Source: an uncultured Acidimicrobiaceae bacterium
Lineage (GTDB): Bacteria > Actinomycetota > Acidimicrobiia > Spongiisociales > UBA5794
Direction of reading: 5' to 3'
Assembly (NCBI GenBank): GCA_947258985.1
Contig: CAMYKI010000002.1
Location: 10,248 to 74,247, forward strand
Length of the DNA stretch: 64,000 nucleotides
The notes below the pieces were generated by a model. That model was not told the DNA's origin. It did not search any database and saw nothing but the letters and a program-made list of their open reading frames with translations. The position numbers were made by a program, and so were the translations under genes. Of the stretch, positions 5,450-37,792 are shown one piece after another; the first letter of the stretch is position 1; every line of letters begins with the position of its first letter.

Positions 5450-6532
5450 TTAGCGGCGCCGCTTGATCTTCGGTGGCTTCTTGCGGGCCGACCGGGTCTT
5501 GACCTGTTTTGCTCCAGATCGAGCGCGGTAGGTGTCGGCGATTTCTGTATCGCGCGCCCAATTGCTGAAGCGGCGCATCATGGACGGTTTCGGCGGCTTC
5601 GGTTGAGCGCTCCTGGCCGCCATGTTCTGCGCAACCTTGGTCCGTCGGACACGTGATCCCACGCCAGGACTTGCCGCAGCGCGCGATTTGGCATGGCGAC
5701 CGTCAGAGCGCGCCCCGGCTCCAGCCGCCACCCGATTGCCAAATCCCTGGTTCTGCGGTTGCAGCAGGGCGATGGTTGCTATGAGGGCGATCAGGGTCAG
5801 CCCGATGATGGTCAACCACCACCAGTTGGCTGAGAAAAACGTGTCGTCACTGTCGGGCGGCAGGACAACGGCGGCCAGCGTGGTCGTCGTCGCTGGGGCC
5901 GCGGTCGTGGTTGTCGTTGTCTCCGGCGCTGCCGTTGTGGCCGGCGCTGCCGTTGTCGTCGTTGTCGTTGTTGTCGTCGACGTGGTGGTCGTTACCGGTG
6001 GCTCGGTTGTGGTGGTTGTCGTGGTCGTTGGGGCCGCGGTGGTTGTCGGTGCCCGCGTAGTAGTCGTCGGCGCCCTCGTTGTAGTTGTTGTGGTGGTTGT
6101 CGTGGTCGTTGGGGCCGCGGTGGTTGTCGTCGGCACGATGGACACCGCGATGGTGCAGGAGCCTCCGCTGCCGTCGTTGGCGTTCTCGTTGACGCCAACC
6201 GATCCGCTTCCGGAAGCGGAGCCGCCGACGCTGATGGATACCGTTGCCGTCCACGCCCCGCCACCTTCGCCGATAGATCCGCCTCCCACGATGCTGGCGC
6301 CGGCGACACCGGACTTACCTCCGAGCGAAGCAAACGCGGCGCTGCTGGAATTGAAGCTCACTGTCACCGACCGGGATTCACCCTGGGGAATACTGACCGA
6401 AGGGCACGACGCTGTGGCGCCTGCCTCGGTAGCAGTGGTGAGCAGAATGCCGACCGCGCCGAGCAGGACTATGAACGCCATCACGATCGGATAGCGGGGT
6501 GTTGCTGTCGTTGCCTGGTTCCGAGTCACCAA
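5450..6532 (-). CDS. Thr/Pro-rich type-I membrane protein (signal peptide, long poly-Thr stalk, one TM, basic cytoplasmic tail)
   Basis: Hydrophobic N-terminal segment, about 120 aa of TTTTT/APTTT low complexity, WWWLTIIGLTLIALIATIALL TM, Lys/Arg-rich C-terminus. The antisense poly-Val ORF 5622-6494 is a mirror artefact. Confidence 0.5.
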   Translation of the reverse strand: MVTRNQATTATPRYPIVMAFIVLLGAVGILLTTATEAGATASCPSVSIPQGESRSVTVSFNSSSAAFASLGGKSGVAGASIVGGGSIGEGGGAWTATVSISVGGSASGSGSVGVNENANDGSGGSCTIAVSIVPTTTTAAPTTTTTTTTTTTRAPTTTTRAPTTTAAPTTTTTTTTEPPVTTTTSTTTTTTTTTAAPATTAAPETTTTTTAAPATTTTLAAVVLPPDSDDTFFSANWWWLTIIGLTLIALIATIALLQPQNQGFGNRVAAGAGARSDGRHAKSRAAASPGVGSRVRRTKVAQNMAARSAQPKPPKPSMMRRFSNWARDTEIADTYRARSGAKQVKTRSARKKPPKIKRRR

Positions 6533-6651: not shown

Positions 6652-7977
6652 CTATTCGGGAGCGTAGATGCGGCTGATCGAGCGGGCATTCCCGTAGAGT
6701 CGGATGCCGTTGCCAACGGCGAGGCTCAGGGGTCGGGCAAAGGTTTGCGTGACCCCGGCGGTAGCGGCTGCCGCTAGTTGGAGTGGCGCCGAGATGAGAC
6801 TCACTATCGCGATGAGGCGGGCCCGGCGGGCCGCCACGAGTTCCTGCAGAACCAACACGAGTGCGGCCATGAGGATGTTCGCCCCGATGGTCGCCGGCAC
6901 CAGCCAGGCGACCTCAAAAGCCTTGGGAATGAGCGTAGCCATTGGGTTGCCCGCCCAGTCCCAGCCGGCAAGTGCCGTGTAGCCAACAGCGGCAGCAACA
7001 ACGATGGCGTTAAAACGGAGATGAATGGTGCGTGACACGCTGCGGTCGCCGGCGAGGGCGGCGGTCATGATCTTTGGGCCGAGGACATATCCAAGACCGG
7101 TCCCAAGCACGAGAACGGGAACAGCGGCAATCCGCGCGGCCTCGGCAAACCCGAGGATTTCGGGGCCTGCAGCAAACGTGATTATCGATGCTCCCGCAAA
7201 GGCACTGATTGTCGGCGTTGCAACACCGACCAGTAGCCAGGAGCCGGATTGGGAGAGGCTCCGCATGTGAATTCGCTCCGGCGCCGTGCCAGCCGGGAGG
7301 GACATGCGAGCCAGCCCCAGACCCACGATCAAGGACACAGCATTGGCAATTGCCAAGGATCCGTAGGGGATCCACGCCCGGGGCGCATCTGTCGCCGTCA
7401 ATATCGCAATTGAGCCAACGACGGCCAGGACTTGTGTAATCGAGACGGCTGCGGCAGCCCAAGATTTATGGGCGATATGGAGCGTGCGGCGCACGTGATC
7501 TTGCGTCGGCCACAGGAAAGTTGTGACGCCCGCAGTGAGCGTTAAGGGCACGACGAGGGCCGCCTCGACGATCTGAATTGTTATCAGACTCGCAACGCCA
7601 ATTGCCATGGCACCGGCAAGTGAGGGTCCCAACGCAAGCGGCATGCTCTGCCTGATAATGCGGAGCCTGTCTTCGATAGGCCAGGCAACCGCAACGACCT
7701 CAGCCGGTATGTACACGAGATTGTTGGCAATGACCTGGCCGAAGTTGAATGCGGTGTAGAAGACGGCGTAAACGCCGAGGTCGGCATCGTCGAGGAGATT
7801 GGCCGCCACGAGGGCCGCAATGAATGTGGCCAGCGAGGACATAGCTGCATCGATGACTCCAGGGGAAATCCCGCGCGCACTTCTGGCACTTTCGACATCG
7901 AGGGCCGCCTCCATGTCCCACTGCTGCATCGCGGTTCCCACGTCAGTTTGCTGCGGAGTGTGTGGGAACTCGCTCAA
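6652..7977 (-). CDS. Polysaccharide biosynthesis protein / Wzx-like oligosaccharide flippase (MOP superfamily)
   Basis: 441 aa, about 12 predicted TM helices, paralogous to the CDS at 20978-22300; located in a glycan-assembly gene cluster. Confidence 0.6.
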   Translation of the reverse strand: MSEFPHTPQQTDVGTAMQQWDMEAALDVESARSARGISPGVIDAAMSSLATFIAALVAANLLDDADLGVYAVFYTAFNFGQVIANNLVYIPAEVVAVAWPIEDRLRIIRQSMPLALGPSLAGAMAIGVASLITIQIVEAALVVPLTLTAGVTTFLWPTQDHVRRTLHIAHKSWAAAAVSITQVLAVVGSIAILTATDAPRAWIPYGSLAIANAVSLIVGLGLARMSLPAGTAPERIHMRSLSQSGSWLLVGVATPTISAFAGASIITFAAGPEILGFAEAARIAAVPVLVLGTGLGYVLGPKIMTAALAGDRSVSRTIHLRFNAIVVAAAVGYTALAGWDWAGNPMATLIPKAFEVAWLVPATIGANILMAALVLVLQELVAARRARLIAIVSLISAPLQLAAAATAGVTQTFARPLSLAVGNGIRLYGNARSISRIYAPE

Positions 7978-11903: not shown

Positions 11904-12923
11904 GTGAAGCTACTAATTTTTGGCGCCGGAGGTTTTATTGGCTCGAACCTCGCTGAGCACCTGATCGAACAGGGTGAACACGAGGTGGTAGGGCTCGACG
12001 TCACCGCCGACAAGCTTGCCGGGATCGAGGGCCCGAACTTCAAGTTCGTCAAGGGCAACATCGCCGACGCCGACCTGGCAAACAAGCTGGTGGCCGATTG
12101 CGACGTCGTCGTCGATCTAATCGCATACGCCAACCCGAGCATTTACGTCGAGAAGCCACTCGATGTTGTGCATCTGAACTTCTTCGAGAACATGAAGATT
12201 CTCGAGTACTGCCTCAGTCATCAGAAGCGATTGGTCCAGTACTCGACGTCTGAGGTCTACGGCAAGCGCACCCGGGATGAGAGCTACAGCGACGACCATT
12301 CCGATCTCGTCATGGGTCCTGTGCAGAAGCAGCGTTGGATCTATGCATCGTCGAAGCAGTTGCTCGAGCGGATCATCTACGCTCACGGCGTCCAAGGCGA
12401 TCTGGACTACTCGATCATTCGTCCATTCAACTTCGTCGGACCGCGGTTCGACTACCTGGTTCCGGCCGGGTCCAAAGGCGGTCCCCGTGTGTTCTCTCAT
12501 TTCCTCTCGGCGTTGCTGACCGGTGGCCCGATCCAACTTGTAGACGGTGGGGATAAGCACCGCTGCTTCACCCACATCAAGGACGCTTGTGAAGCCTTCA
12601 GCGCGATCCTCGAGAATCCGGCCGGCCATAACGAGATCTTCAACGTTGGCAATCCGGACACCAATACAACGATGCGTGGTTTGGCCAAGATGATGCAGTC
12701 GATCTACGGGGAGCTCACGGGAACGCATCCTGACAATGAGCTCATCGACATCGACGGCGAAGACTTCTATGGCAAGGGTTACGAGGACATGGATCGGGTT
12801 CCGCCGGACGTGACCAAGCTCATGGCGCTTGGCTGGAAGCCGACCCGTGATCTCGATACGATCTTCCGCGAGGCGATCCAGTACTACCTGGATCGTCCTG
12901 ATCTGACAGCGGCCATTCGGTAG
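11904..12923 (+). CDS. NAD-dependent epimerase/dehydratase (UDP-glucuronate decarboxylase / ArnA-dehydrogenase-domain-like short-chain dehydrogenase/reductase)
   Basis: Rossmann motif MKLLIFGAGGFIGSNL, catalytic YASSKQ (YxxxK) motif, 339 aa. Confidence 0.7.
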   Translation: MKLLIFGAGGFIGSNLAEHLIEQGEHEVVGLDVTADKLAGIEGPNFKFVKGNIADADLANKLVADCDVVVDLIAYANPSIYVEKPLDVVHLNFFENMKILEYCLSHQKRLVQYSTSEVYGKRTRDESYSDDHSDLVMGPVQKQRWIYASSKQLLERIIYAHGVQGDLDYSIIRPFNFVGPRFDYLVPAGSKGGPRVFSHFLSALLTGGPIQLVDGGDKHRCFTHIKDACEAFSAILENPAGHNEIFNVGNPDTNTTMRGLAKMMQSIYGELTGTHPDNELIDIDGEDFYGKGYEDMDRVPPDVTKLMALGWKPTRDLDTIFREAIQYYLDRPDLTAAIR

Positions 12924-12935
12924 TTAGGAGCCGCG

Positions 12936-15326
12936 GTGGGGTGGATTGAGGGGCGTCGAAGATGGGTCTGGCTGTCCGGGCTCGTCTTCGTCGCGCTCCT
13001 TTTGACTCCGGTCGGGGTATCCGGCGCGGTGCCGGTGTCGAGTGGCGACGATGTTCTGATCATCGCCGCCCACCCGGACGATGATGTGATCACCGCCGCG
13101 GGGATCATTGAGGATCAGCTCGACGTTGGCGGGACCGTCACCGTGGCTTACGTCACGAACGGAGATCGGTGCGAGTCGCAGAGCCAGGTGGACAACGGGC
13201 GCTGCTCTGAACTGCAACCGGGTATCGGGACGGTCCGCCAAGGCGAAGCGGTCGATGCAGAGCGCGAGTTGGGCACGGTCGTCGGTAGCGACGAGAGCAA
13301 CCTCATCTTCATGGGATATCCCAATGGCTTTGTCGATGCGGTGCGTTACGGATGGGCACTACCGGAACTCTTCCATGACGAGACCTACGCCTCGCGGGGC
13401 TTGGGGGGTACCGACTGGCACGACCACCGCACTGGGGATCATGCCGCCTATACCGCGCAGAATCTCCTGGACGATATGGAGGCAGTGATCGAGGCCCGTA
13501 AGCCTGATCACATCTTCACCCACATGCGCTGGGACCGGCACGAGGACCATAGGGGCACCTACTACGTGGTCATTGATGCCGTCGAAAACGTGCAGGATGG
13601 CGATCCGAGTTACAACCCCTATATCCACACCGCACTGGTCCACGTTAAGGATCCGGCGCAATGGGGCCAATGGCCGGCATCCTCCAACCCGACTACTCCG
13701 GTGAACGAGTACTCGGAGCTCGGCGAAGACACCAACGATGAACTCGTATGGGATCAGCGGGAGAGCTTCGAGGTGCCGCCCGAGATGCAATTGCCCTACT
13801 ACTCGGGATCCAATCCCAAGGCTGAGGCTATTGAGGAGCATTCCAGCCAACTGGCCGACGGCTTCATCCGCCGGTTTGCCCACAGCGACGAGGTCTTCTG
13901 GGTTGAGAAGCTGGGTGCGGCAGAAGGACGTGACGACAACCACAGCCTCGATGAGGGCGGCTCGATCGCCGTGTCGGCCTCCGGGTTGCTGCGCAACGAC
14001 GTACGCGGCATTGGTATGCCGTTCGGCGTTGCCCCGGGCATTGATCCGACACCCCTCGGTCCAATGAGCGCAGTGAAGGTGACGAACCCCTCCCATGGGT
14101 CGGTGACCGTTGGATCCGATGGCTCGTTTACGTACACGCACGACGGCTCGGAGGCGGCGACCGACTCCTTCACGTACCGACCGGTCCAGGGATCCACCAA
14201 CGGATCGGTTGCGACGGTGACCATCAACGTCAATCCGATCAACGACCCCCCGAGCGCCGTTGCCGATGGTCCGTACACGGTCGCAAACGGCGGGACCAGC
14301 GACCTTCCTGTGCTCGGCAACGACACCGACCCAGAGAACGATCCACTCACGGCCATCGCAGACGCCGGTCCGCAACACGGGACGTTGCTCCCCAAAAGCA
14401 GCGGTTTCGCGTATACCCACGATGGGTCGGCCACGACAAGCGATTCCTTCACCTATCACGTGCGCGATACCGGCGGGTTGACCTCCGGTCCGGTGACGGT
14501 CTCAATAGACATCATCGAGGAAGTTCCCGATCCGCTTTCGGTGACGATGTCCGGCCCCGCCTTCGGTTCGCCGGGCACGACCGCAACGTACACAGCCGCT
14601 GCCAGCGGCGGGTCCGGTTCGGCCACCATCTCATGGTCGGTCATGCGGTCGGGCGTTGAGGTCGACTCAGGGGAAGGCACCACCTTCGATTTCGAGCCGG
14701 ATTTGGCCGGGGCTCACACGGTTATGGCAACGGCCGAAGACGGCTCCGACACCGACAGCGATTCGCTGGGTTTGACCGTCATGGAAGACATCGTAGGAAA
14801 CGTCTTCGCTGCCGACATCCTCTGGCTCGCCGACGAGGGCATCACCTTCGGCTGCAATCCGCCGGTCAACGATCAGTTCTGTCCGAAGGCGCTGGTGACT
14901 CGTGGGCAGATGGCTGCTTTCCTCGTGCGTTTCCTCGGCCTGACGGCCAGCGACGATGCGATCAACTTCACCGATACCGTTGGCAATATCTTTGCCGGGG
15001 ATATCCGGAAGTTGGCGACCGCAGGTATCACCCGCGGGTGCAACCCACCGGCTAACACTGAGTTCTGTCCCAACTCCTCGGTGACCCGGGGTCAGATGGC
15101 AGCATTCCTAGTGCGGGCGCTGGGACTCACCGACGATGGCGGCGGCAACCTGTTCACCGATGACAATGGTTCGATCTTCGAATCCGACATCGATCGGCTG
15201 GCGACCGCTGGCGTGACCAAGGGCTGCAATGCCGAGGGCACGCATTTCTGTCCAAGCGGATCGGTGACCCGGGAGCAGATGGCCGCTTTCCTGCATCGTG
15301 CTGCAGACCTCCTTCCCGGCAGATAA
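12936..15326 (+). CDS. Secreted multidomain surface protein: PIG-L/LmbE-family deacetylase + cadherin-like/PKD-like repeats + C-terminal triple SLH-like cell-wall-binding module
   Basis: Signal peptide; AHPDDDVITAAG (PIG-L HPDDE-like motif) and His/Asp clusters (WHDHRTGDH, RHEDH); repeats DSFTYRPVQGS...VTINVNPINDPP (cadherin/VCBS-like); three C-terminal repeats of the pattern FxDxxxxIFxxDIxxLAxxGITxGCNPPxNxxFCPxxxVTRGQMAAFLVRAL. Confidence 0.7.
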   Translation: MGWIEGRRRWVWLSGLVFVALLLTPVGVSGAVPVSSGDDVLIIAAHPDDDVITAAGIIEDQLDVGGTVTVAYVTNGDRCESQSQVDNGRCSELQPGIGTVRQGEAVDAERELGTVVGSDESNLIFMGYPNGFVDAVRYGWALPELFHDETYASRGLGGTDWHDHRTGDHAAYTAQNLLDDMEAVIEARKPDHIFTHMRWDRHEDHRGTYYVVIDAVENVQDGDPSYNPYIHTALVHVKDPAQWGQWPASSNPTTPVNEYSELGEDTNDELVWDQRESFEVPPEMQLPYYSGSNPKAEAIEEHSSQLADGFIRRFAHSDEVFWVEKLGAAEGRDDNHSLDEGGSIAVSASGLLRNDVRGIGMPFGVAPGIDPTPLGPMSAVKVTNPSHGSVTVGSDGSFTYTHDGSEAATDSFTYRPVQGSTNGSVATVTINVNPINDPPSAVADGPYTVANGGTSDLPVLGNDTDPENDPLTAIADAGPQHGTLLPKSSGFAYTHDGSATTSDSFTYHVRDTGGLTSGPVTVSIDIIEEVPDPLSVTMSGPAFGSPGTTATYTAAASGGSGSATISWSVMRSGVEVDSGEGTTFDFEPDLAGAHTVMATAEDGSDTDSDSLGLTVMEDIVGNVFAADILWLADEGITFGCNPPVNDQFCPKALVTRGQMAAFLVRFLGLTASDDAINFTDTVGNIFAGDIRKLATAGITRGCNPPANTEFCPNSSVTRGQMAAFLVRALGLTDDGGGNLFTDDNGSIFESDIDRLATAGVTKGCNAEGTHFCPSGSVTREQMAAFLHRAADLLPGR

Positions 15327-15377: not shown

Positions 15378-17150
15378 ATGACTCGGGCTAGTGGGAAACG
15401 GCACCGACCGCTCATTCTCGTTATCGGCATCGCGCTCCTTCTCGGGGTGGTGGCCGCACCCGGTACTCCGGCCGCCGACGCCTCGTTTCCCGGCGGGAGC
15501 GACTGGATAGTCTTCACTGGAGCCGACGAGGCCGGGACCGGCGATCAAGAGATATGGGCAATTGCTGCCGACGAATCGACCAGACCTGTCAACCTGACCA
15601 AGAACCAGTTGCTCGAGGGCGATCCGGCCTTCTCTGCCGACGGATCTCGCCTGGCTTTCGCCCGAGATGTGGGCGGTTCTTCCGCCATCTACGTTGCCGA
15701 TTTCGATCCGACAGGTCCGGCACTCGGCCCCGCACTCAAGGTCAGCAGCGGACCGATCGATGGCGGGCCGACCTGGTCGCCGGACGGGACGACGGTCGCA
15801 TTTCAGCGGAAGATCATTACAACGATGGCTTCTGGCGCGGCCGACGCCGCTGCTCCAAAGGATTTGATCGACGGGTCCGGGAATTTCGTTGCCAGAGGGG
15901 TTGTCGTCGGCGATACCGTGAGGAACCTCTCGGATGGGTCTAGTGGCATTGCCGCCGCAGTGTCGCCGTCTACGGTTGCGATCGCTGGTGGCCTTGTCGG
16001 AGGGACCTCCAACTCGTGGAAAGCCGGCGACACATACGCCGTGGAGCGATCTCACCGGCAGATCTTCGCTGTGCCGGCCGATGGATCAAACGCCGCCGGT
16101 ACGCGCCTGTCTCCCTCGGGGTCGCAGTTGCTCTACGACGACCAAGAGCCGGCCTGGTCACCCGACGGCGCCTTGATCGCCTTCACCTCCACCCAGGAAA
16201 GCGGCAACTCGGATATCTTCACCATGGCGGCAAGTGGTGGTTCGCGGAAGAACCTCACCAACGTGGGGTCTCTCGACAACGTTGCCAGTCGTGCCAGTTG
16301 GGCGCCGGACGGGCAGAACATCGCTTTTCAAATCGCCGAGCCCAACGTCGCCGACCAGAACATCTACAGGATGTCGCGAACGGGCGCAGGTGTGACCTTG
16401 ATTACCGGTGCAGCTGTGAGTGGAACCGACAACGACGTGGAGCCGGCCTGGTCGCCAGATGGCGCCCGCATCGGTTTCCGACGCGGCGGAACCGGAGGCA
16501 ACAAGCTCTACGTGATCAACGACGACGGAAGCGGTGTGGCAACGCGACTCGGGTCCGGTTCGCTGCCGGCTTTCAATAGCGACCCCGAGTGGCGACCGGT
16601 CATGCTGCTCTCCGACATCAGCAGCAGCCCGTTCTTCTTCGACATCCTGTGGCTGGCCGGGCGCGAGATCACCAAGGGCTGCAACCCGCCGATAAACGAT
16701 CAATTCTGTCCAGGTTCTCTGGTTACGCGGGGTCAGATGGCAGCTTTCCTGGTGCGGTTCCTAGCGTTGACGGCGAGCGACTCGTCGATCAGCTTCACCG
16801 ACACGGCTGGCAACATCTTTGCCGGAGATATCCGAAAGCTGGCAACGGCCGGCATCACTCGGGGCTGCAACCCGCCGGCCAATACGGAGTTCTGTCCGCA
16901 TGACTCGGTGACGCGGGGTCAGATGGCGGCTTTCCTGGTTCGTGCGCTGGGCCTCACGGATGATGGTGGCGGGAATCTGTTCGCCGATGTCGATGGTTCG
17001 ATCTTTCAGGAAGATATCGACAGGCTGGCAACCGCCGGCATAACAAAGGGCTGCAACCCGCCGGCCAACACGCGGTTCTGTCCGTACAGTTCAGTTACTC
17101 GTGGGCAGATGGCGGCGTTCTTGCATCGTGCCGCCAAGCACCTACCCTGA
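15378..17150 (+). CDS. Secreted TolB-like beta-propeller protein with C-terminal triple SLH-like module
   Basis: Signal peptide; repeated PxWSPDGxxIAF blades (PTWSPDGTTVAF, PAWSPDGALIAF, ASWAPDGQNIAF, PAWSPDGARIGF); same three C-terminal SLH-like repeats as the preceding gene. Confidence 0.7.
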   Translation: MTRASGKRHRPLILVIGIALLLGVVAAPGTPAADASFPGGSDWIVFTGADEAGTGDQEIWAIAADESTRPVNLTKNQLLEGDPAFSADGSRLAFARDVGGSSAIYVADFDPTGPALGPALKVSSGPIDGGPTWSPDGTTVAFQRKIITTMASGAADAAAPKDLIDGSGNFVARGVVVGDTVRNLSDGSSGIAAAVSPSTVAIAGGLVGGTSNSWKAGDTYAVERSHRQIFAVPADGSNAAGTRLSPSGSQLLYDDQEPAWSPDGALIAFTSTQESGNSDIFTMAASGGSRKNLTNVGSLDNVASRASWAPDGQNIAFQIAEPNVADQNIYRMSRTGAGVTLITGAAVSGTDNDVEPAWSPDGARIGFRRGGTGGNKLYVINDDGSGVATRLGSGSLPAFNSDPEWRPVMLLSDISSSPFFFDILWLAGREITKGCNPPINDQFCPGSLVTRGQMAAFLVRFLALTASDSSISFTDTAGNIFAGDIRKLATAGITRGCNPPANTEFCPHDSVTRGQMAAFLVRALGLTDDGGGNLFADVDGSIFQEDIDRLATAGITKGCNPPANTRFCPYSSVTRGQMAAFLHRAAKHLP

Positions 17151-17323: not shown

Positions 17324-19921
17324 ATGACTCATGTGGGCGTAAGTATGCGCCGGATGCTAACGGTGCTGTTGGCGGCGACGCTGCTATTTGGCCTCACGGC
17401 CACGGTGGCGATTCAGCCCGCCAATGCCGGCTTCCCCGGTGGTACCGGATGGATAGTCTTCGAGAACAACTTCAGCCTGTACACCGTCTCGGCCGAAGGG
17501 GGAACTCCGCAGCTGGCTGAGGCTTCGTTGTTCAACCTGGCGGATCCGGTGTTCTCGCCGGATGGCACCGAGGTTGCTTTTGCCCAGGACGTTGGTGGGG
17601 CGACCGGCTCGGCGGTCTTTGTTGCCGGGTTCAACTCGTCTACCGGGATGCTCGATCCGGTCGTCAACTGGGATCAGGTTTCCAGTGGTCCTGTTGACGG
17701 TGAACCAACCTGGTCGCCAGACGGAAGCATGATCGCCTATCACCGGCGTACCGTTACGACTCGGGCGACAGGTCAGGTCGATGGCATTGATATGGGCGAC
17801 GACGACAAGTTGATCGACTCCACCGCCGACTTCATCGCGGCCGGTGTGCAGTCGGGCGACACTGTGCGTAATCTCGACGACCTATCGAGCGGGGTCGTTA
17901 CCGGGCGAACCACGACCGAGGTGACCATCGGAGGTGGCCTCGCGGGAGGAACGCTCGATGCTTGGACGATCGGTGACGACTACATCATCACCTACACCTC
18001 AAATCGGCAGCTCTACTACTCGGACTCCGACGGCTCGGATTTGAACGGAACTGCTCTCAGCGCCAACGGCTGGTCGGATTCGTACCACGACCAGAATCCG
18101 TCGTGGTCGCCAGATGGCGATTACATCGCCTTTGAGACGACTCGGAATGGCAGTGCCGACATCTTCACGCTGGAGTTCGCCAGTCCCAACACCGTCAACA
18201 ATCGCACGGGAAGCATCACCCTGTTTGCCACGCGACCCAACTGGTCGCCGGACTCGACCCAGATTGCATTCCAGTCTAAGAACGACAACGCGGCTGGTCC
18301 TGAGAACATCTGGCGTGTCAACGCTTCCGGCACCCCTGCGTTCGTTCAGGTAACCAACGCCGCAAGCGATGACTTGTCGCCAGCGTGGTCGCCGGACGGA
18401 ACAGAGATTGCCTTCCGCAATGTTGGAAGCGCCGGTCTCCGCGCGGCGCCGGCAGACACTGCAACTCCCGGGGCGACGCGCCTGATCGCAGCGGATGTTG
18501 GTGGCAACTCCAACAGCGAACCGGACTGGCAGCCGGTTCTCACCGGTGTCGACGATGCTTACGCCGTCGATGAAGGTGGGACACTCGACGTGCTGCTAGT
18601 CGACGGTGTCCTGGCAAACGATCTCGCTTTGGTTGACGACCTAGGTGCGGTGACAGCGACCAGCTTCACCACGACCACCAACGGTGTTTTGACGCCGAAT
18701 GCCAACGGGACATTCACGTACGTACACGACGGCTCGGAGACAACCACCGACTCGTTCACATACGTGCCTGCGCAAGGCTCGCTCACCGGCGGTATCACGA
18801 CCGTGACCATCACGATCGACCCGGTTGACGAGGCCCCTGTGGCAGTCAACGACGGTCCGTTTGCGGTGGTCAATGCCGGGACGATCAATGAGGCTGCCCC
18901 GGGTGTGCTCGAAAACGACACCGACCCCGAGGGCGGGGCGCTGCGAGCCTTCTTGGTTGCCGACGCCAGTAACGGCGACCTGACACTCAACGAGAATGGC
19001 TCGTTTACCTATGTGCATGACGGGTCGAACACGACGGTCGACTCCTTCACCTACCAGGCCAAGGACGCCGGCGACAACACGTCGAACACGGCAACCGTGA
19101 CCATCGAGATTGGGCCGATCGATCCCGATCCGCCCACGCCGACCATCCTGGGACCTTCGTTCGGTCAGCTCGGAGAAGAAGTTACCTTCAACTCGACAAT
19201 CACCGACGGCTCCGGAGGTCCCCTCAACTACACCTGGACGGTGACCAGGGACGGCACAGCCGTTCCTCCCGTCGGCACGAGTACGACGTATAGCCTCACG
19301 CCAGCGTTGAGCGGTGTCTACGAGGTCGAACTCGTTGTTGTCGATAGCGCCGGCACGGGTACGGCCACGTTCAAGTTCACGGTGATGACGGACATCGCGG
19401 ATAGCGTGTTTGCCTCAGACATCGTCTGGCTCGCCAACGAGGGAATCACCAAGGGCTGCAATCCGCCCGTGAACGACCAGTTCTGTCCCGACGCGACAGT
19501 GACTCGTGGTCAGATGGCGGCCTTCCTGGTGCGCTTCCTCGGCTTGACCGAAACCGACCCCACGATCGCATTCACAGATACGGCGTCTTCGATCTTCGAA
19601 GATGACATTCTCAAGCTGGCGACAGCCGGGATTACTCGTGGCTGCAACATCGAGGGGACGGCGTACTGCCCGAATGACAGCGTGACCCGCGGTCAGATGG
19701 CAGCGTTCCTCGTGCGTGCACTCGAGTTGACCGACGATGGCGGAGGCGATCTATTCGCAGACGATGACGACTCGATCTTCGAATCCGAGATCGACAAGCT
19801 GGCTACGGCAGGCATCACCAGAGGGTGTAACCCACCGGCCAACACGAACTTCTGCCCGACGGGCACGGTAACCCGTGGTCAGATGGCAGCGTTCCTGCAT
19901 CGTGCCGACGGACTCGACTAG
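17324..19921 (+). CDS. Secreted TolB-like beta-propeller + cadherin-like/PKD-like repeat protein with C-terminal triple SLH-like module
   Basis: Signal peptide MRRMLTVLLAATLLFGLTATVA; PxWSPDG propeller blades; DSFTY...VTITIDPVDEAP cadherin-like repeats; three SLH-like repeats at the C-terminus. Confidence 0.7.
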   Translation: MTHVGVSMRRMLTVLLAATLLFGLTATVAIQPANAGFPGGTGWIVFENNFSLYTVSAEGGTPQLAEASLFNLADPVFSPDGTEVAFAQDVGGATGSAVFVAGFNSSTGMLDPVVNWDQVSSGPVDGEPTWSPDGSMIAYHRRTVTTRATGQVDGIDMGDDDKLIDSTADFIAAGVQSGDTVRNLDDLSSGVVTGRTTTEVTIGGGLAGGTLDAWTIGDDYIITYTSNRQLYYSDSDGSDLNGTALSANGWSDSYHDQNPSWSPDGDYIAFETTRNGSADIFTLEFASPNTVNNRTGSITLFATRPNWSPDSTQIAFQSKNDNAAGPENIWRVNASGTPAFVQVTNAASDDLSPAWSPDGTEIAFRNVGSAGLRAAPADTATPGATRLIAADVGGNSNSEPDWQPVLTGVDDAYAVDEGGTLDVLLVDGVLANDLALVDDLGAVTATSFTTTTNGVLTPNANGTFTYVHDGSETTTDSFTYVPAQGSLTGGITTVTITIDPVDEAPVAVNDGPFAVVNAGTINEAAPGVLENDTDPEGGALRAFLVADASNGDLTLNENGSFTYVHDGSNTTVDSFTYQAKDAGDNTSNTATVTIEIGPIDPDPPTPTILGPSFGQLGEEVTFNSTITDGSGGPLNYTWTVTRDGTAVPPVGTSTTYSLTPALSGVYEVELVVVDSAGTGTATFKFTVMTDIADSVFASDIVWLANEGITKGCNPPVNDQFCPDATVTRGQMAAFLVRFLGLTETDPTIAFTDTASSIFEDDILKLATAGITRGCNIEGTAYCPNDSVTRGQMAAFLVRALELTDDGGGDLFADDDDSIFESEIDKLATAGITRGCNPPANTNFCPTGTVTRGQMAAFLHRADGLD

Positions 19922-19971: not shown

Positions 19972-21066
19972 CTATTGCAGGGAGATACGTCGGGTGCGAC
20001 GTGCTTGAGGAGACAGTCGCTGATCCCAGACTCTCTTGGCGACGTGTATCGGCCCGGTGAGGGCGGCCGCAAGCAAGCGGATAGCCGTGCGCAGCGTGTC
20101 CCCCTGGGCGTATGCCAAACCGGCCTGGCGATAGTTGTACTGCGAGGCGTCCTCCATCCAGATGCGCAGCTTGTGCCACCACGGCGAATTCGCCTCGGTG
20201 GTGACGAACTCCTCGCGGGACGGGAGTGGGACACCGCCAAGGCGAGCGCGGCGCCGAGCCTCCAAGTAGCGATGGGTTCTCCTGCCCTCACGGAAGCGAA
20301 GCATCACATTGCTCGATGAGTAGATCCGGTACAGCAGTAACGGTTCGGGCATCGCGATGATCGCCCCATGGTCCGCCATCCGATCACAGAACTCCAGGTC
20401 GCCCGCTGTCCGCAGGCTGCCGTCGAAACCGCCCACCTTCTCGAAGAGCTCGCGGCGATACATGGCGGTGCCACCGAACACCAAGGTTGGTTCTCCTCTG
20501 CGGCGTAGTTCCTCGAATTCGGCAACCGTCGTTGGTCCCGTCGGGGAGAGACTCAGTATCTCCTCGCTGTCGTTGGCGTGCGAAACGTAGCTGCCGAGTA
20601 CAGCGATCTCGGGTCTGGCCTCTAGCAATTCCACCTGCTTCTCGAGCCGCGTCGGCAGCGAGACATCGTCCGCATCCATACCCGCAAGTAGCGGTGCCCG
20701 GGCCATTGCCGCAGCCCGGTTGGTGGTGGCGTACTGACCGCGGTTCTCCTCGTTGCGGAATCCGTGAACTCGTTTGTCCTTGGTGGCATATGTTTGGATG
20801 AGATCCCAAGTACCGTCAGTCGATTGATCGTCACCGACGATGAGCTCGATATCGGCGAGCGTCTGTTCGAGGATGCTGTCGATGGCCCTGGCGATGTAGG
20901 GCTCGGCGTTGTAGGCCGGCATCAGGACGCTGACAACAGGAACGCGTTCCGTCTTGCGCTTCGGTTTTGCTGCAACGTCAGTCAAGGGATCGCTCCCGGA
21001 TCGAATTGGCCTCGAGATTGGATTCTGAATCGAACTCCGGCTGCGACACCGTCGCACCTTCGGCAT
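19972..21066 (-). CDS. Family 2 glycosyltransferase (GT-A fold)
   Basis: VSVLMPAYNAEPYIARAIDSILEQT...IVGDDQSTDGT and a DAD(D) motif. The true start is probably downstream of the annotated ORF start, which overlaps the upstream flippase gene by 88 nt. Confidence 0.75.
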   Translation of the reverse strand: MPKVRRCRSRSSIQNPISRPIRSGSDPLTDVAAKPKRKTERVPVVSVLMPAYNAEPYIARAIDSILEQTLADIELIVGDDQSTDGTWDLIQTYATKDKRVHGFRNEENRGQYATTNRAAAMARAPLLAGMDADDVSLPTRLEKQVELLEARPEIAVLGSYVSHANDSEEILSLSPTGPTTVAEFEELRRRGEPTLVFGGTAMYRRELFEKVGGFDGSLRTAGDLEFCDRMADHGAIIAMPEPLLLYRIYSSSNVMLRFREGRRTHRYLEARRRARLGGVPLPSREEFVTTEANSPWWHKLRIWMEDASQYNYRQAGLAYAQGDTLRTAIRLLAAALTGPIHVAKRVWDQRLSPQARRTRRISLQ

Positions 21067-22300
21067 AGAGGCGTTTCAGCCAGTAAGTGCCGCCTGCAAC
21101 CCGGAGAAGACCTTCCAGAATGTAGCCCAGCGGCCGGGCAAACGCGCCGGTCGTCCCGGCGGTAACCGCGGCAAGCGGCAGAGCCGGCGCCGCAACAACC
21201 GAAATGAATGCCAGCGTCCGGGCCTTGCCTCCGCCCAGCAGCTCGCGGCTGAGGATGAGATAGAGGGCGATCAGAACATTCCCAAGCACCGTCGCTGCGG
21301 CGAGGCCGCCGATCACATATGCCGAAGGGATTAGGTAGGCCATGGGATTGAGGCTCCACGACCAGCCGGCGATCGTCGCGTACGCCACGCCGCCGAGAGC
21401 CATCAGGGCTAGGTAGACGTTCCGATTGGAGCGTGCGGCCACAGCATCCCGGTCGGCCCCGGCACGCACCGCACGCGGCCCTAGAACGGCCATGAGGCCA
21501 ACAGAGAAGACCGTGATCGGCTGGGCAACCTGTCGCGCCGCCTCGGCGTAGCCGTAAGCTTCTGGACCGGCGAGGTCGGTGATGATGTTGGCCGAGATGA
21601 AGGCCAGCGTTGCCGGGGTTGCGGCACGGAGCACGAGCCATTTCCCGGACGCAGCCAGGCTGCTGAACGTCATCGAAGTCCGGTCCTGTACCTTGCCGAG
21701 GTGGCCTTGCGCCAGGAGATAGGCAACGGAGAGGGAGACGACGTTGGCGGTCGCCAGTGATCCAAACGGGATCCAGGCACGGGGGACGTCCGAAAGGAAC
21801 ATGACGGTGATGGTGACCGCGATCGTCACCAATTGGACCGTCGACACAACGACTGCAAGCCACGACTTCTCCGCGATATGCAGGAGCTGTCGCACGTGAT
21901 CCTGCATCGGCGAGACCACGATGATGACGGCCGTTGGAACCGCCAACGCCACAATGACGTCTGTAGATGTCAGGTCCTGGGTCAGGAGCGCTGTGACGGG
22001 AGCAACCATCGCAGTGACGAGACCCGGCCCAATCGCCAGCCCGAGGCTTCTTCTCGTGACACTCAGCCGTTCTGCGAGCGGCTTGCTCACCGCAACAACC
22101 TGGGCGGGGACGAGGATCAGCTCGGAAAGGACAATCGAGCCCAGGAAGAATGCCGCAAAGAAGATGCCATAGACACCGCGGTCGACATCGCTGAGCAAGT
22201 TGAGGCCGGCAAGGCCTGCGCCGAAGGTCGCGATCGAAGCCAGCGCGGCGTCGACGACACCTGCAGCCAGTAGCTTCTTCCGCAACGGTCCCTTGCTCAT
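20978..22300 (-). CDS. Polysaccharide biosynthesis protein / Wzx-like flippase (second copy)
   Basis: 440 aa polytopic membrane protein paralogous to CDS 6652-7977 (shared motifs around DLGVY/DRGVYGIFFAAF and the downstream helices). Confidence 0.6.
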   Translation of the reverse strand: MSKGPLRKKLLAAGVVDAALASIATFGAGLAGLNLLSDVDRGVYGIFFAAFFLGSIVLSELILVPAQVVAVSKPLAERLSVTRRSLGLAIGPGLVTAMVAPVTALLTQDLTSTDVIVALAVPTAVIIVVSPMQDHVRQLLHIAEKSWLAVVVSTVQLVTIAVTITVMFLSDVPRAWIPFGSLATANVVSLSVAYLLAQGHLGKVQDRTSMTFSSLAASGKWLVLRAATPATLAFISANIITDLAGPEAYGYAEAARQVAQPITVFSVGLMAVLGPRAVRAGADRDAVAARSNRNVYLALMALGGVAYATIAGWSWSLNPMAYLIPSAYVIGGLAAATVLGNVLIALYLILSRELLGGGKARTLAFISVVAAPALPLAAVTAGTTGAFARPLGYILEGLLRVAGGTYWLKRLYAEGATVSQPEFDSESNLEANSIRERSLD

Positions 22301-22332: not shown

Positions 22333-23985
22333 CTAGTAGGCCTGCCCAACCTTGTCGGCTACGCGGAGGGCCCAGGCAACGGTGGTAAGGAGCGGATTCG
22401 CGTAACCGCTCACCGGGAACACCGACGAGTCGGCAATGTACAGGTCGGCCACGGTATGGGCACGACCTTCGGGATCGACCACGCCGAGCTTAGGGTCGGT
22501 CGCCATCCTCGCGGTTCCGAGATGGTGGTGTCCGCCGCGGAGACCGGGCCCCCAATCAGCAGAGTCGGCTTTGAACGCAGGTTCCGGGACCAGGTGTCCG
22601 AGTCCAGACGACTCGAGCTGACTCCCGATGATTCTCTGCGCCTTGACGATGGAATCCTTGTCGATACGGCTCAGTCGCCACTCGAGGTTGATCCGGGGCA
22701 TGCCCAGCGCATCGGTCTTCGATGCGTTGAGCGTCATCCGGCTGTCCCGATTCGGCGATTGCTCGCTCTGGGTGTACAACGCCAACTGTTTCGGCCGACG
22801 GAGCGCTTCGTGGTAGATCACCTGCATGATCTCCGGAGTTCCCTTGATCAGTCGCATCGTGAGACGTTTGGAATCCTCCGGCAGCGACTTGGTTCTGATC
22901 TGGCGGTACATCTGGCTGGGAGACCGGAGGTTGCCGACGGCGAGCTTGAAGGCCTGATAGGCATCAGATTCCTCGCGGCTCACCGGGCTGACGGTGCGAA
23001 GATGCGTAGAGAAGTTGAGTAGGTGCTCCGACTCCTGCTTCTCCCGACTGACCGTGTAGGCCACCTTCATTGCTCCCGCCGGCCTTTGTAGTGCCAGTCG
23101 GGCGCGGACACCCCCGAAACCCTTGTCGATTGCATCGAGACCGGGCCGGTTGGTCTTTGTCTGGGGGAACAACTCGATTCTCCCGGTGACCAGATGTGGA
23201 TGCTCCATGAAATAGCGTCCAACCACGTCGTTCTCGTTGGCGAGCCCGGCGGGATTGGCGCGCTGAGAAGCCAGCAGCAAACGGCTCGTCTCCAGAGCGC
23301 CGGCGGCGAGCACAACGGCCCTGGAGCCAACTGTGAACTCATTGCCTTCGAGAGTTGCAACCCTGACTCCGGTTGCCTTCGTGCCGGCCTCATCGCTGAG
23401 GACCTCTACAGCGGTAGCGTTGGTGATCGTTGTTATCTGGCGGGAAGTCTCGAGCTGCTCTCGGTATACGTTGCCGAACTTCGTTGGAGGGCTCCCCTCC
23501 CAGAGAGCGATCTCGACGTCCTTTCCGACGAATGGATCGACGTACACGGGGGGCAGGTTGCTGCCCTCCTCCGGCGCCCATTGCATCTTGTCGAGCTGGC
23601 AGAGGCGGGCCGCATCGGAGTAGTAGGGCAGGAATTCGTCGTATGAGATCGGCCACCCACTGTTGGGGACCCAGGGTCGGCCATCGAAGTCGATGCGATC
23701 CATCGGGCGACACCAGCCCGCCCACTTGTGGCTGGACCCTCCGAGGACACGGTGGCGGGTCAGAGTGAGGTCGTAGTAATCCAGGCCGACGTTGTCTCCC
23801 GCGTTGAGCTCCTGTGGTTCGGGCTCCGTCGCCACGCCGCCGCTCTCGAGGAGAACGATGTTGAGTGCAGTCGTACGAGCCAGTCGGAGGGCGAGGCCGA
23901 TTCCTGCGGGTCCCCCGCCCACAACGCAAATATCGGTTTCGAGCTGTGTTCCACGAGGGATCTGAGCGCCACCCTGGATGGCCAT
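22333..23985 (-). CDS. GMC-family FAD-dependent oxidoreductase (choline dehydrogenase-like)
   Basis: N-terminal FAD fingerprint ICVVGGGPAGIGLALRLA; 550 aa; GMC C-terminal region with conserved His. Confidence 0.65.
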   Translation of the reverse strand: MAIQGGAQIPRGTQLETDICVVGGGPAGIGLALRLARTTALNIVLLESGGVATEPEPQELNAGDNVGLDYYDLTLTRHRVLGGSSHKWAGWCRPMDRIDFDGRPWVPNSGWPISYDEFLPYYSDAARLCQLDKMQWAPEEGSNLPPVYVDPFVGKDVEIALWEGSPPTKFGNVYREQLETSRQITTITNATAVEVLSDEAGTKATGVRVATLEGNEFTVGSRAVVLAAGALETSRLLLASQRANPAGLANENDVVGRYFMEHPHLVTGRIELFPQTKTNRPGLDAIDKGFGGVRARLALQRPAGAMKVAYTVSREKQESEHLLNFSTHLRTVSPVSREESDAYQAFKLAVGNLRSPSQMYRQIRTKSLPEDSKRLTMRLIKGTPEIMQVIYHEALRRPKQLALYTQSEQSPNRDSRMTLNASKTDALGMPRINLEWRLSRIDKDSIVKAQRIIGSQLESSGLGHLVPEPAFKADSADWGPGLRGGHHHLGTARMATDPKLGVVDPEGRAHTVADLYIADSSVFPVSGYANPLLTTVAWALRVADKVGQAY

Positions 23986-24019: not shown

Positions 24020-25222
24020 CTACCGTTGCTGCAGGGCCGTGAGAACGGCGTCCTCGAGCTCTGCCACCGCAGCTCTCCGATCCAAGAGGGGCCGGTCATC
24101 GACCGGGGGAGCCTCGAAATGTTGATCGATAGCAGCCGCAAAGCCCGACGCTACTGCATCTAGTGCACCCGGCGGCACCCGGATGACCCTTTCTTGGTCG
24201 GTGGTGGATCGGGCGATCGAGGCGGCGCCCCCATGGTCGAGCACGATCAAGCGTCTTGCAGTGAGCATTGCTTCTGCGAGTGCGAGACCACCTTCCTCGC
24301 GCAGGCCTGTGAATATGACCGTGGTCGCGCCCCGCATGAGCTTCACCGCGTCGGTGCGTTCAACCCATCCGGTAAACGTGATCCGGTCGGAGATTCCCAG
24401 CCGAACAGCCAGCTCCTCGAGCGATTTCCGCTGCGGGCCGTCTCCAACCATCTTGAGGGTGACGTCGCTGCTGGTTCTGGCGAGGGCTTGGATCACCAGG
24501 TGGGGTCCCTTGCGGCTCTCCATCGGGGACACCCACAACGCAAACCGGCCGTCTTCCTCCTTGGCCGATTCTGGTACCACGCTGAAAAGAGCGTGGTTCA
24601 GGATGCGGTTGTCGATCCGGGCCGCGGCCGGTAGGAGTCTGCGGCTTTCTTCGTTTTGGAGAAGCCGCTCAGTGGCACGATTCGCCGAACGGCGAGAGGC
24701 CGGGAGCATCGCGACGAGCCTCACGGCGATGAGGTCGAGCAACTCTTGAAAGACACCGGCGAGGCCCAGGAGTTTCCACAGGGGACGGGGGGTGGTGACG
24801 CCTCCTCCAACGGGACCCCAAATGCTGGGCACGCCGAGGGTGGTTGCCGGCGTAGGGAGCCATGCGGCGGCAAATGTTGCGTGGGCCGCCGCATCGATCT
24901 CGCTGGAATCGACGATATCCCGACCGACCCGTCTTGCCCTGCGCTGCCAGAGCAGATAGAGGATGAACTCGACAATACGGTGCCAGCGCATGTAATTGCC
25001 TACCGCCGGATCAGGCACTTCCACGAACTTGATGGTGCTGTCGGGGTTGTCCTGCTCCCAGTCTCGGATTTCCTCGAAGTAGCGGTTGCCGATCAACACG
25101 GTCAAGTCGGCGAACTCGGCGAGAGCGGTTACGACTCCCCAGCCTGCTCCGTACTCGGATCCGCGAACTGGCGAACAGGCATAGGCGATGACGAGGAGCG
25201 AAGGCCTCTGGTTGTCAGCCAT
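24020..25222 (-). CDS. Group 1 glycosyltransferase (GT4-like, GT-B fold)
   Basis: 400 aa; C-terminal TFTGW...FTGLREEGGLALAEAM (EX7E-like motif). Confidence 0.65.
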   Translation of the reverse strand: MADNQRPSLLVIAYACSPVRGSEYGAGWGVVTALAEFADLTVLIGNRYFEEIRDWEQDNPDSTIKFVEVPDPAVGNYMRWHRIVEFILYLLWQRRARRVGRDIVDSSEIDAAAHATFAAAWLPTPATTLGVPSIWGPVGGGVTTPRPLWKLLGLAGVFQELLDLIAVRLVAMLPASRRSANRATERLLQNEESRRLLPAAARIDNRILNHALFSVVPESAKEEDGRFALWVSPMESRKGPHLVIQALARTSSDVTLKMVGDGPQRKSLEELAVRLGISDRITFTGWVERTDAVKLMRGATTVIFTGLREEGGLALAEAMLTARRLIVLDHGGAASIARSTTDQERVIRVPPGALDAVASGFAAAIDQHFEAPPVDDRPLLDRRAAVAELEDAVLTALQQR

Positions 25223-27154: not shown

Positions 27155-27859
27155 ATGCTGCAGGGTAGGACTGAACGTTCATCCATTGATGACGTAGTAG
27201 TTACAGGCGATGTGGCCGGCCAGCCGCATCTACACGTGGTTCCCGCGATTGCGCCGAGAGGCGCATATCAGCGGTTTGTGAAACCGACCATCGACCGTCT
27301 TGGGGGCATTGTGCTGTCGCTGTTGACGGCTCCCATCTTGATGGTGGTGATTCCGCTCATTTGGATCAAGCTGGGCCGGCCGGCGATCTTCAAGCAGAAG
27401 CGGATAGGCCTGGGTGGCAAGGATTTCACGGTCTTCAAATTGCGGACAATGCGACCGGATCGGCGTGCGAACGTCCTGCAGTGGGACGGGGTCGACCGTC
27501 GGGTCAATCACAAGTCACCCGATGATCCACGTCACGTACCGCTCGGGCGGTTCTTGCGCAAGTGGAGCCTCGACGAGCTGCCACAGTTCTGGAATGTCGC
27601 TCTTGGACACATGAGTCTCGTCGGACCGCGTCCCGAGTTGCCTGCGCTGGTTGACAAGTATGAGCCGTGGCAGCATCGCCGCCATGCGGTGAAGCCGGGA
27701 ATCACTGGTCTGTGGCAGGTGTCGGAGAGGGGCGATGTGCCGATGCATGAAGCCACCGATATCGACATCGAATATGTCGACACGGTCAGCCTTCGCATGG
27801 ACATGCGAGTCATGGTGATGACCATTCCGGCAGCGCTGGGCAGCAACAAAGGCCACTAG
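27155..27859 (+). CDS. Polyprenyl-phosphate sugar phosphotransferase (bacterial sugar transferase, EpsL/WbaP C-terminal domain type)
   Basis: Single TM then [18 protein letters not shown]...[24 protein letters not shown], hallmark of the bacterial sugar transferase family. Confidence 0.8.
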
Positions 27860-27900
27860 TCGGGCCTACCGACCGGGACCCCATTGATCATCTTGGGTTC

Positions 27901-35679: not shown

Positions 35680-35813
35680 GCTGACGGCCGGGTGCCCGGG
35701 ACGTCGGCACTGAGTTCGCGGCGCTAACACGGCCCCCGCCGGCTTCTTGCGTACGGTGCTCCGGCATGCCGAAGTGGTGTCCGCCAGAACGTGGTCTGAG
35801 GTTCGCTCGCCGA

Positions 35814-36751: not shown

Positions 36752-36755
<4 letters not shown>
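35814..36755 (-). CDS. fcl: GDP-L-fucose synthase (GDP-4-keto-6-deoxy-D-mannose 3,5-epimerase/4-reductase)
   Basis: [14 protein letters not shown] Rossmann motif; YxxxK (PYGVAKK); conserved NLYGPRDNF...[11 protein letters not shown]. Start reassigned to TTG at 36753-36755, which overlaps the gmd stop (TTGA); the annotated ORF extends to 36884. Confidence 0.75.

Positions 36756-37792
<1,037 letters not shown>

Follow-up and report, generated by a model that had tools for sequence, protein, structure and literature searches.

To our knowledge, every LmbE/PIG-L enzyme that has been studied biochemically works on the cytoplasmic side, where its substrates are small and either soluble or lipid-linked. 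De-N-acetylation of polysaccharides after export is attributed to carbohydrate esterase family 4 (CE4) in bacteria and to CE18 in fungi. The LmbE superfamily is defined by the motif HXD1D2+H, in which the metal is held by both histidines and D2, with D1 serving as general base; residues of its substrate site are, in MshB numbering, Arg68, Asp95, His144 and Asp146 (PMC4101496). For wall anchoring by surface layer homology (SLH) repeats, binding of SpaA to pyruvylated N-acetylmannosamine (ManNAc) rests on SLH-Gly29 (GIIxG), SLH-Arg43 (TRAE) and SLH-Trp13 (PMC6081394). Here, we describe a PIG-L/LmbE gene from an uncultured Acidimicrobiaceae bacterium, located in a stretch of 64,000 nucleotides of contig CAMYKI010000002.1 (the whole stretch being called the window hereafter). 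Its product joins an LmbE catalytic domain to a stalk and a C-terminal SLH trimer, and is predicted to be exported. We propose, with a probability of roughly 55%, that this protein de-N-acetylates the wall polymer or exopolysaccharide of its own gene cluster outside the cell.

The PIG-L profile PF02585 matches residues 41-215 in Pfam with an E-value of 9.2e-22 and 78.3 bits, for a cut-off of 28.2. An AlphaFold2 (AF2) model of residues 1-345, obtained from 61 homologs, has a mean predicted local distance difference test (pLDDT) value of 91.1. In a Foldseek comparison with the PDB, all 42 matches at E<=1e-3 are LmbE-superfamily enzymes, with target-normalised template modelling (TM) scores of 0.51-0.67 and 13-19% identity to the solved LmbE structures. 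They include MshB (2.9e-10), Pyrococcus Dac, BC1534/BshB, LnmX, the teicoplanin and A40926 deacetylases (Orf2*/Dbv21), GalB and TT1542. The CE4 NodB domain (PF01522) has no Pfam match in the protein, so that the non-CE4 fold announced in the preliminary description of this DNA is confirmed. The same description had given the family the N-terminal ~180 residues. The family was correct and the size was not, because the C-terminal blocks NPK..AI..H.SQ and DEVFW belong to the LmbE fold and bring the domain to ~290 residues (~38-325). The K..A...H.SQ part of these blocks is common to Dac.

The open reading frame (ORF) and the motif AHPDDDV (residues 45-51) are present where they had first been noted, and HEDH lies at residues 202-205. 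H46, D48, D49 and H205 fit HXD1D2+H and align to the corresponding residues of Pyrococcus Dac, TT1542 and BC1534. In profile alignments, R101 pairs with BshB Arg53 (equivalent to MshB Arg68), and H202 and D204 pair with MshB His144 and Asp146. H46, P47, D49 and D204 are invariant in the alignment of 61 sequences, while D48, D50, R101 and H205 are conserved in at least 90% of them. Hence, the zinc ligands expected from the first reading of the sequence (H46, D49 and H205), together with the general base D48, hold up in alignment. The PIG-L protein is an intact but distant member of the LmbE superfamily. It is not an orthologue of MshB, BshB, Dac or another named enzyme, since similarity is low and every NCBIfam equivalog cut-off failed (BshB1, 28.3 bits for 182.5; BshB2, 21.6 bits for 195.25, over the N-terminal 40 residues only). 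The catalytic domain presumably carries out zinc-dependent amide hydrolysis.

At the other end of the protein, Pfam finds SLH with 36.9 bits in the whole sequence and with 44.9 bits, in three stretches, in the isolated C-terminal 186 residues (cut-off 20.8 in both cases). A profile of the triplet matches Sap (PDB 3PYW) at E=1.3e-14, and also the SLH regions of SbsB and SpaA. The AF2 model of the triplet, with a pLDDT of 94.8, superposes in Foldseek on Bacillus anthracis Sap-SLH 3PYW (TM-scores of 0.77/0.80, rmsd of 2.5 Å, 177 columns) and on ligand-bound SpaA-SLH (TM-scores of 0.69-0.82). SLH-Gly29 is kept in every repeat (GITFG, GITRG, GVTKG), as is SLH-Arg43 (TRGQ, TRGQ, TREQ), and both are invariant across 17 and 50 aligned triplets. 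SLH-Trp13 is not kept: a Val or Ile aligns with the Trp of Sap and the next position is an invariant Phe. In addition, each repeat has a loop longer by three residues that bears an invariant Cys pair (GC-x7/8-CP). This Cys-pair variant is very common, with more than 5,248 database proteins, of which those named by taxon are mostly from Acidimicrobiia; the heads joined to it include plastocyanin, subtilisin, CAP and Excalibur. What had been called an "SLH-like" triplet is therefore, by profile, fold, Gly29 and Arg43, a genuine SLH trimer in a Cys-bridged variant, which the model presents as a three-pronged spindle with pseudo-threefold symmetry.

At the N-terminus, three Arg (RRR) lie in the n-region, the hydrophobic core is 14 residues long (Kyte-Doolittle values of about 2.2-2.5) and Pro25 is present. 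Small residues occupy positions -3 and -1 (VSGA/VP, that is S-G-A/V-P, the slash marking the putative cleavage site), and this site lies seven residues ahead of the first β-strand of the enzyme. A single sequence heuristic, applied to 79 loci from species-representative genomes, detected a signal-like N-terminus directly before HPDDD in 57 of the 64 loci at >=30% identity. The Paenibacillus relatives of cytoplasmic type (263-278 residues, 22-24% identity), which serve as a control, have none. Each of the eight cysteines has a partner close by in the sequence: C79 and C90 lie together in a loop of the enzyme, and every SLH repeat has a pair of its own. Short-range Cys pairing is typical of exported proteins, and Ig-like and SLH modules are extracytoplasmic. 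The n-, h- and c-regions and the behaviour of the related and control loci thus support the signal peptide proposed at the outset, and we infer that the protein is exported and cleaved near A31. As an Arg-Arg pair is often kept in close homologs, export may follow either the Sec or the Tat route.

These features also bear on an opposite topology, in which the N-terminal segment would stay uncleaved as a membrane anchor, with the catalytic domain facing the cytoplasm and a lipid-linked precursor as substrate. A parallel could be seen in DnpA, a PIG-L member of a lipopolysaccharide (LPS) cluster that is reported to be membrane-localised, and the present gene is coupled to nucleotide-sugar and priming genes. 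However, the SLH, Ig-like and PKD modules downstream work outside the membrane, no second transmembrane segment is present, the cysteines are paired and an AXA-like cleavage site follows the h-region. Such a topology is very improbable.

Between enzyme and anchor, Big_9 and Cadherin_4 each match twice in Pfam. The isolated PKD segment spans profile positions 2-79 of 80, with E=0.001 and 19.5 bits, below the cut-off of 23.5. Of the cadherin/PKD-like repeats initially described, the Big_9/Cadherin_4 pair is thus supported, while the PKD-like part is weak and sub-threshold. The gene starts with GTG, 12 nt past the stop codon (12921-12923) of the synthase gene upstream. A residue-identical protein is called on four independent metagenome contigs, where the neighbours are also the same.

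The PIG-L gene is positioned within a Wzx/Wzy-type surface-glycan cluster that extends from ~5.4 to 34.2 kb of the window. Its products include Wzy_C, two Wzz/BY-kinases and two membrane proteins resembling Wzx; glycosyltransferases of GT2 and GT1 type, the Bac_transf priming enzyme and its WecG/TagA/CpsF-family neighbour; and, in addition, UDP-glucose 6-dehydrogenase, a GMC oxidoreductase and two β-helix proteins. The UDP-4-keto-pentose/UDP-xylose synthase, PIG-L and two PD40 propeller genes form an apparent operon. The synthase/PIG-L pair is found in 13 of 16 Acidimicrobiia loci and on three further contigs, with a 4-nt overlap in one contig. The loci in which the synthase, a cytoplasmic enzyme, is encoded directly upstream of PIG-L are L004, L005, L007, L011-L018, L024, L061, L063, L069 and L073, and one Acidimicrobiia subclade has the order Bac_transf, synthase, PIG-L. 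In Acidimicrobiia, genes for GMC oxidoreductase, Bac_transf, Wzz, β-helix and PD40 proteins are usually close to the pair, and synteny is kept at 33-65% identity. Outside this class, a Thermodesulfovibrionales homolog lies within a Wzm/Wzt glycan cluster.

It is because of this gene context that the cluster's own glycan is favoured as the substrate. After export and cleavage near A31, the SLH trimer would bind a peptidoglycan-linked secondary wall polymer, and the three-domain Ig-like stalk would keep the enzyme within the wall or exopolymer layer at a distance of some nanometres. The surface glycan that the cluster produces would there lose N-acetyl (or other N-acyl) groups from its amino sugars and gain free amines. 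This is the job of CE4 enzymes elsewhere (PgaB, IcaB, PelA, PgdA), which a different fold would perform here; a CE4 domain was not found in any of the scanned window ORFs of at least 220 residues. A precedent for the chemistry exists in B. anthracis, where the terminal unit of the secondary cell wall polymer, to which SLH domains bind, is pyruvylated, O-acetylated and de-N-acetylated (PMC5568421).

Several observations weigh against this proposal. A CsaB-type pyruvyltransferase (PS_pyruv_trans) gave no match among the scanned window ORFs of at least 220 residues. Genes of an N-acetyl-hexosamine pathway (WecB, GlmU-type) were not identified in the window, so that an N-acetyl sugar in the cluster product is itself presumed. 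In the catalytic domain, the position of MshB Asp95 is taken by Asn130 (GYPNG), the clade consensus being GYPDG with Asp in most members. The best sequence-level match in the PDB, a diacetylchitobiose deacetylase, is weak (E=5e-4), although the same alignment pairs HPDD with HPDD, and HEDH with HPDH. In Gram-negative members of the clade, contexts are mixed (glycogen synthase, GlmS and acyltransferases adjoin) and the link to glycan clusters is not universal. Finally, no characterised member of the signal-bearing PIG-L clade was found. Nor did we find a paper on an exported LmbE enzyme, a weak negative since subscription journals were mostly outside coverage.

The wall anchor would also suit an enzyme acting on the GlcNAc/MurNAc of the cell's own peptidoglycan, like PgdA or PdaA, for lysozyme resistance or autolysin control. 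The N-deacetylase site is intact and no CE4 domain was found in the scanned window ORFs of at least 220 residues, which is consistent with this role. However, the three-domain stalk puts the enzyme away from its anchor point and the gene is conserved in a heteropolysaccharide cluster, whereas some 45 kb separate it from the M23 peptidase and FtsEX genes (60-63 kb). We regard peptidoglycan as an improbable substrate.

The relatives of the PIG-L protein bear on another possible use of such an enzyme. In a profile search, 92 protein clusters were retrieved, of which nearly all came from metagenomes and metagenome-assembled genomes (MAGs). The PIG-L + Big_9 + SLH architecture is shared by 17 of them, with catalytic domains at 41-62% identity; PIG-L + Calx-beta + SLH occurs in 9, and PIG-L + F5/8-type-C + PKD + SLH in one. 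PIG-L and SLH occur together in 27 database clusters, and the architecture is thus recurrent. Other relatives end in FG-GAP/VCBS-like repeats or in F5/8-type-C/DUF7402 modules. Since many members of the clade carry modules of carbohydrate-binding type (F5/8 type C, DUF7402) and the best sequence-level PDB matches are diacetylchitobiose deacetylases, the protein could be a surface deacetylase that scavenges foreign N-acetylated glycans, such as chito-oligosaccharides or the walls of other microbes, in the manner of the archaeal diacetylchitobiose deacetylases but outside the cell. Against this, the adjacent genes are biosynthetic, with synteny kept, and include none for glycoside hydrolases, sugar transport or catabolism. 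Scavenging is accordingly unlikely, and action on the cluster's own glycan remains our preferred reading.

That PIG-L proteins are normally cytoplasmic, as had been stated, is true of the characterised enzymes (PMC4101496) but does not extend to the family as a whole, exported PIG-L proteins being common in uncultured bacteria. In species-representative genomes, nearly all of them MAGs, the signal-bearing clade occurs in Acidimicrobiia, Acidobacteriota, Gammaproteobacteria (Thiodiazotropha, Methylobacter), Myxococcota, Desulfobacterota, Nitrospirota, Leptospirales and others. Source names are generic ("LmbE family N-acetylglucosaminyl deacetylase", "VCBS repeat-containing protein", "Ig-like domain-containing protein"). 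A separate profile that took in Big_9 columns of three full-length homologs gave 37,336 matches (E<=1e-3), the top 150 being mainly giant tandem-Ig adhesins, and this number is not the size of the clade; its few useful matches hold a PIG-L domain inside proteins of 1,000-2,000 residues. A glycan-cluster link for the whole clade beyond Actinomycetota was considered but found no support, contexts being mixed in Thiodiazotropha, Methylobacter, Vicinamibacterales, Leptospirales and Nitrospirota.

Two kinds of C-terminal module other than SLH were observed among these relatives. Gram-negative members at L025 and L021, of ~1,000-1,650 residues, combine PIG-L, F5/8 type C and PKD with 3-4 copies of DUF7402, and Vicinamibacterales have two such PIG-L/DUF7402 genes in tandem; exported PIG-L enzymes appear to have a dedicated partner domain in DUF7402. 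In P0015, P0018, P0035 and P0038, about six GNPGDxPxxGDWDGDG repeats (FG-GAP/VCBS-like) replace SLH at the C-terminus. In this lineage, the repeats may serve as an alternative anchor that binds the wall or calcium.

Five paralogs (P0006, P0043, P0052, P0061 and P0067) have degenerate motifs (GPGSD, HPGGD, NPGAD; NYTDDY replacing DxHxDH). Degenerate copies sometimes share a contig with an intact paralog, as P0043 with P0048 and P0052 with P0045. They are probable pseudoenzymes, mostly with a Calx-beta stalk and an SLH anchor. Their motif loss means that the scaffold can persist without catalysis, and one may ask whether the PIG-L protein of the window is itself a glycan-binding head or performs another chemistry, as a Mca-like amidase, a GalB-like hydratase or an enzyme removing a different N-acyl group (e.g. 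formyl from an aminopentose). The LmbE superfamily does contain amidases and a hydratase, and the gene is tightly coupled to that of the UDP-4-keto-pentose synthase. On the other hand, the PIG-L protein keeps every catalytic residue, and neither an aminotransferase nor a formyl/acetyl-transferase turned up in the window, L004 or L005. We give this group of alternatives little credence. Motifs decay when they are not needed, and we therefore argue that the intact copies, that of the window included, are enzymes; for the latter, de-N-acetylation of the cluster's glycan is the activity that we favour.

A wider reading can be offered, tentatively and with more doubt than confidence. Next to CE4 and CE18, the exported PIG-L clade could represent a third, so far unrecognised family of enzymes that de-N-acylate glycans outside the cytoplasm. 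The Acidimicrobiia enzyme could then edit the secondary wall polymer to which the Cys-bridged SLH anchors of this lineage bind, and in this way decide which of the surface proteins remain attached. The residue acted on, or one next to it, could be pentose-derived and possibly N-acylated, as hinted by the fixed pairing with the UDP-4-keto-pentose/xylose synthase. Deacylation of an Ara4N-type N-acyl-aminopentose, formed through the ArnA-like synthase encoded next to PIG-L, was kept only as a low-probability candidate, with no aminotransferase or N-acyltransferase in the window, L004 or L005. Among the loci examined, DegT is present only in L007 and L010, and most Acidimicrobiia loci have no aminotransferase near the pair.

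The features of the gene and of its neighbourhood are collected in Table 1.

Table 1 Positions of the PIG-L gene, its domains and neighbouring genes in the window
Feature	Position	Strand	Basis or remark
UDP-4-keto-pentose/UDP-xylose synthase (like ArnA C-terminal domain)	11904..12923	+	NF008872 (bifunctional enzyme), 307.8 bits for an equivalog cut-off of 294
Ribosome-binding site AGGAG, 5 nt ahead of GTG	12926..12930	+	Sequence read directly
Whole PIG-L/LmbE gene, 796 residues; predicted exported deacetylase, two Ig-like, PKD-like, three SLH repeats	12936..15326	+	ORF list, Pfam
Signal-peptide-like N-terminus, residues 1-31, MGWIEGRRRWVWLSGLVFVALLLTPVGVSGA/VP	12936..13028	+	Sequence heuristic
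LmbE/PIG-L catalytic domain, residues ~38-325	13047..13910	+	Pfam PF02585, AF2, Foldseek
H46-P-D48-D49-D50: ligands H46 and D49, general base D48	13071..13085	+	Homolog and structure-profile alignments
H202-E-D204-H205: H205, third metal ligand; H202 and D204 match MshB His144 and Asp146	13539..13550	+	Alignments
Two Big_9/Cadherin_4-type Ig-like stalk domains, residues ~345-525	13968..14510	+	Pfam
PKD-like domain, residues ~534-614	14535..14777	+	Weak alone; homologous to PKD of the paralogous cassette in 17324..19921
SLH repeat 1, GITFG ... C-x8-C ... VTRGQ	14787..14942	+	Profile, alignment, model
SLH repeat 2, GITRG ... C-x8-C ... VTRGQ	14967..15128	+	Profile, alignment, model
SLH repeat 3, GVTKG ... 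C-x7-C ... VTREQ	15153..15311	+	Profile, alignment, model
PD40/TolB-like β-propeller, same C-terminal SLH triplet	15378..17150	+	Pfam, alignment
PD40 propeller, two Big_9, PKD, three SLH repeats	17324..19921	+	Stalk-plus-anchor cassette 56% identical to that of the PIG-L protein
Priming phosphoglycosyl transferase, Bac_transf, small	27155..27859	+	Domain search
WecG/TagA/CpsF-family glycosyltransferase, after Bac_transf	27901..28746	+	Domain search
β-helix protein, signal peptide, N-terminal SLH triplet of Cys-pair type	28865..30574	-	Sequence

The cluster thus encodes four wall-anchored proteins of its own, namely the PIG-L protein, the two PD40/Tricorn-like propellers and a β-helix protein. 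In the second β-helix protein (NosD-like, 25215..26837, minus strand), a long Thr/Pro-rich linker stands in place of SLH and a lipoprotein signal (LLLTGC) is present; this protein is a paralogous head on a different anchor. With regard to the WecG/TagA/CpsF-family gene, TagA-type enzymes of Firmicutes add the ManNAc that becomes the pyruvylated SLH ligand. An ORF on the minus strand (27856..28587) that overlaps the Bac_transf/WecG-family region is probably spurious.

Two paralogous multi-pass membrane proteins (6652..7977 and 20978..22300, both on the minus strand) have no Pfam or NCBIfam match. Their position beside Wzy_C and GT2 is conserved in related loci, and both are probably Wzx-type flippases of divergent sequence. 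The product of 5450..6532 (minus strand) is mucin-like and has no Pfam match. It has a signal peptide, long tracts of poly-Thr/Pro/Ala and, at the C-terminus, a transmembrane segment, together with a tail that is highly basic. CsaB was also sought among the unannotated ORFs of the cluster and both candidates were rejected, 6652..7977 being a Wzx-like protein with multiple transmembrane segments and 5450..6532 a Thr-rich surface protein. The GMC oxidoreductase (22333..23985, minus strand) is weakly similar to mycofactocin MftG and pyranose oxidase. It is kept in nine Acidimicrobiia clusters (L004, L005, L006, L007, L018, L063, L065, L069 and L073), and this conservation hints at an oxidised sugar in the polymer. 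Elsewhere in the window, three large ORFs at 40476..43271, 46003..48207 and 35766..37055 (931, 734 and 429 residues) are without a Pfam match, and a DUF5719 protein is encoded at 43103..44659. A scan for promoters and terminators was uninformative, with no promoter-like site and 3 terminator-like sites for 5.6 expected, and Rfam gave no match at 11-20.5 kb of the window.

If the proposal is true, an exported, wall-tethered LmbE enzyme in a glycan cluster adds a new fold to post-export de-N-acetylation. The PIG-L + SLH architecture is not unique and is already labelled generically in databases; it is in predicted location and in context that the exported clade differs from every studied LmbE enzyme. 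The surprise is moderate, as this is a prediction from sequence for one of many similar proteins. Such an enzyme would also give an entry point to the cell envelope of Acidimicrobiia, an abundant but mostly uncultured class in which this structure has hardly been studied. Thousands of proteins carry the disulfide-bridged SLH anchor on which the envelope evidently relies.

Compared with the LmbE/CE14 enzymes (MshB, BshB, PIG-L, archaeal diacetylchitobiose deacetylase, teicoplanin deacetylase), the protein has the same fold, zinc site, general-base Asp, Arg and His-x-Asp-His, and presumably shares with them the carboxypeptidase-like hydrolysis of an N-acetyl amide. The spacer between its ligands, of 156 residues, is longer than the 97-148 residues given in the review of the superfamily, where secretion is nowhere mentioned (PMC4101496). 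It also has clade-specific blocks (TYASRGLGGTDWHDY, WP and W..RE.F.VP). In contrast to its predicted signal peptide, stalk and SLH trimer, the characterised LmbE/CE14 enzymes are soluble and cytoplasmic, or on the face of the endoplasmic reticulum, and have small-molecule substrates. Within the same superfamily, the closest case with a similar setting in a surface-glycan cluster is Pseudomonas aeruginosa DnpA (PA5002), a predicted GlcNAc de-N-acetylase. DnpA, reported to be membrane-localised, is without a stalk or wall anchor, and it was not detected as a close relative of the PIG-L protein.

With CE4 (PgdA, PgaB, IcaB, PelA, HfsH) and CE18 (Agd3), the protein would share its role, the metal-dependent de-N-acetylation of an exported polymer by an enzyme encoded within the biosynthetic cluster. 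The likeness would be a functional analogy, since CE4 enzymes have a NodB barrel whereas the PIG-L protein has the Rossmann-like fold of LmbE. Finally, the anchor has the three-repeat spindle, Gly29 and Arg43 of Firmicutes SLH proteins (Sap of B. anthracis, SpaA and SlhA of Paenibacillus alvei, SbsB of Geobacillus stearothermophilus). Unlike theirs, however, the triplet is C-terminal and not N-terminal, has TRGQ/TREQ instead of TRAE, Val/Ile instead of Trp13 and a loop with a Cys pair, and belongs to an actinobacterium of the Acidimicrobiia.

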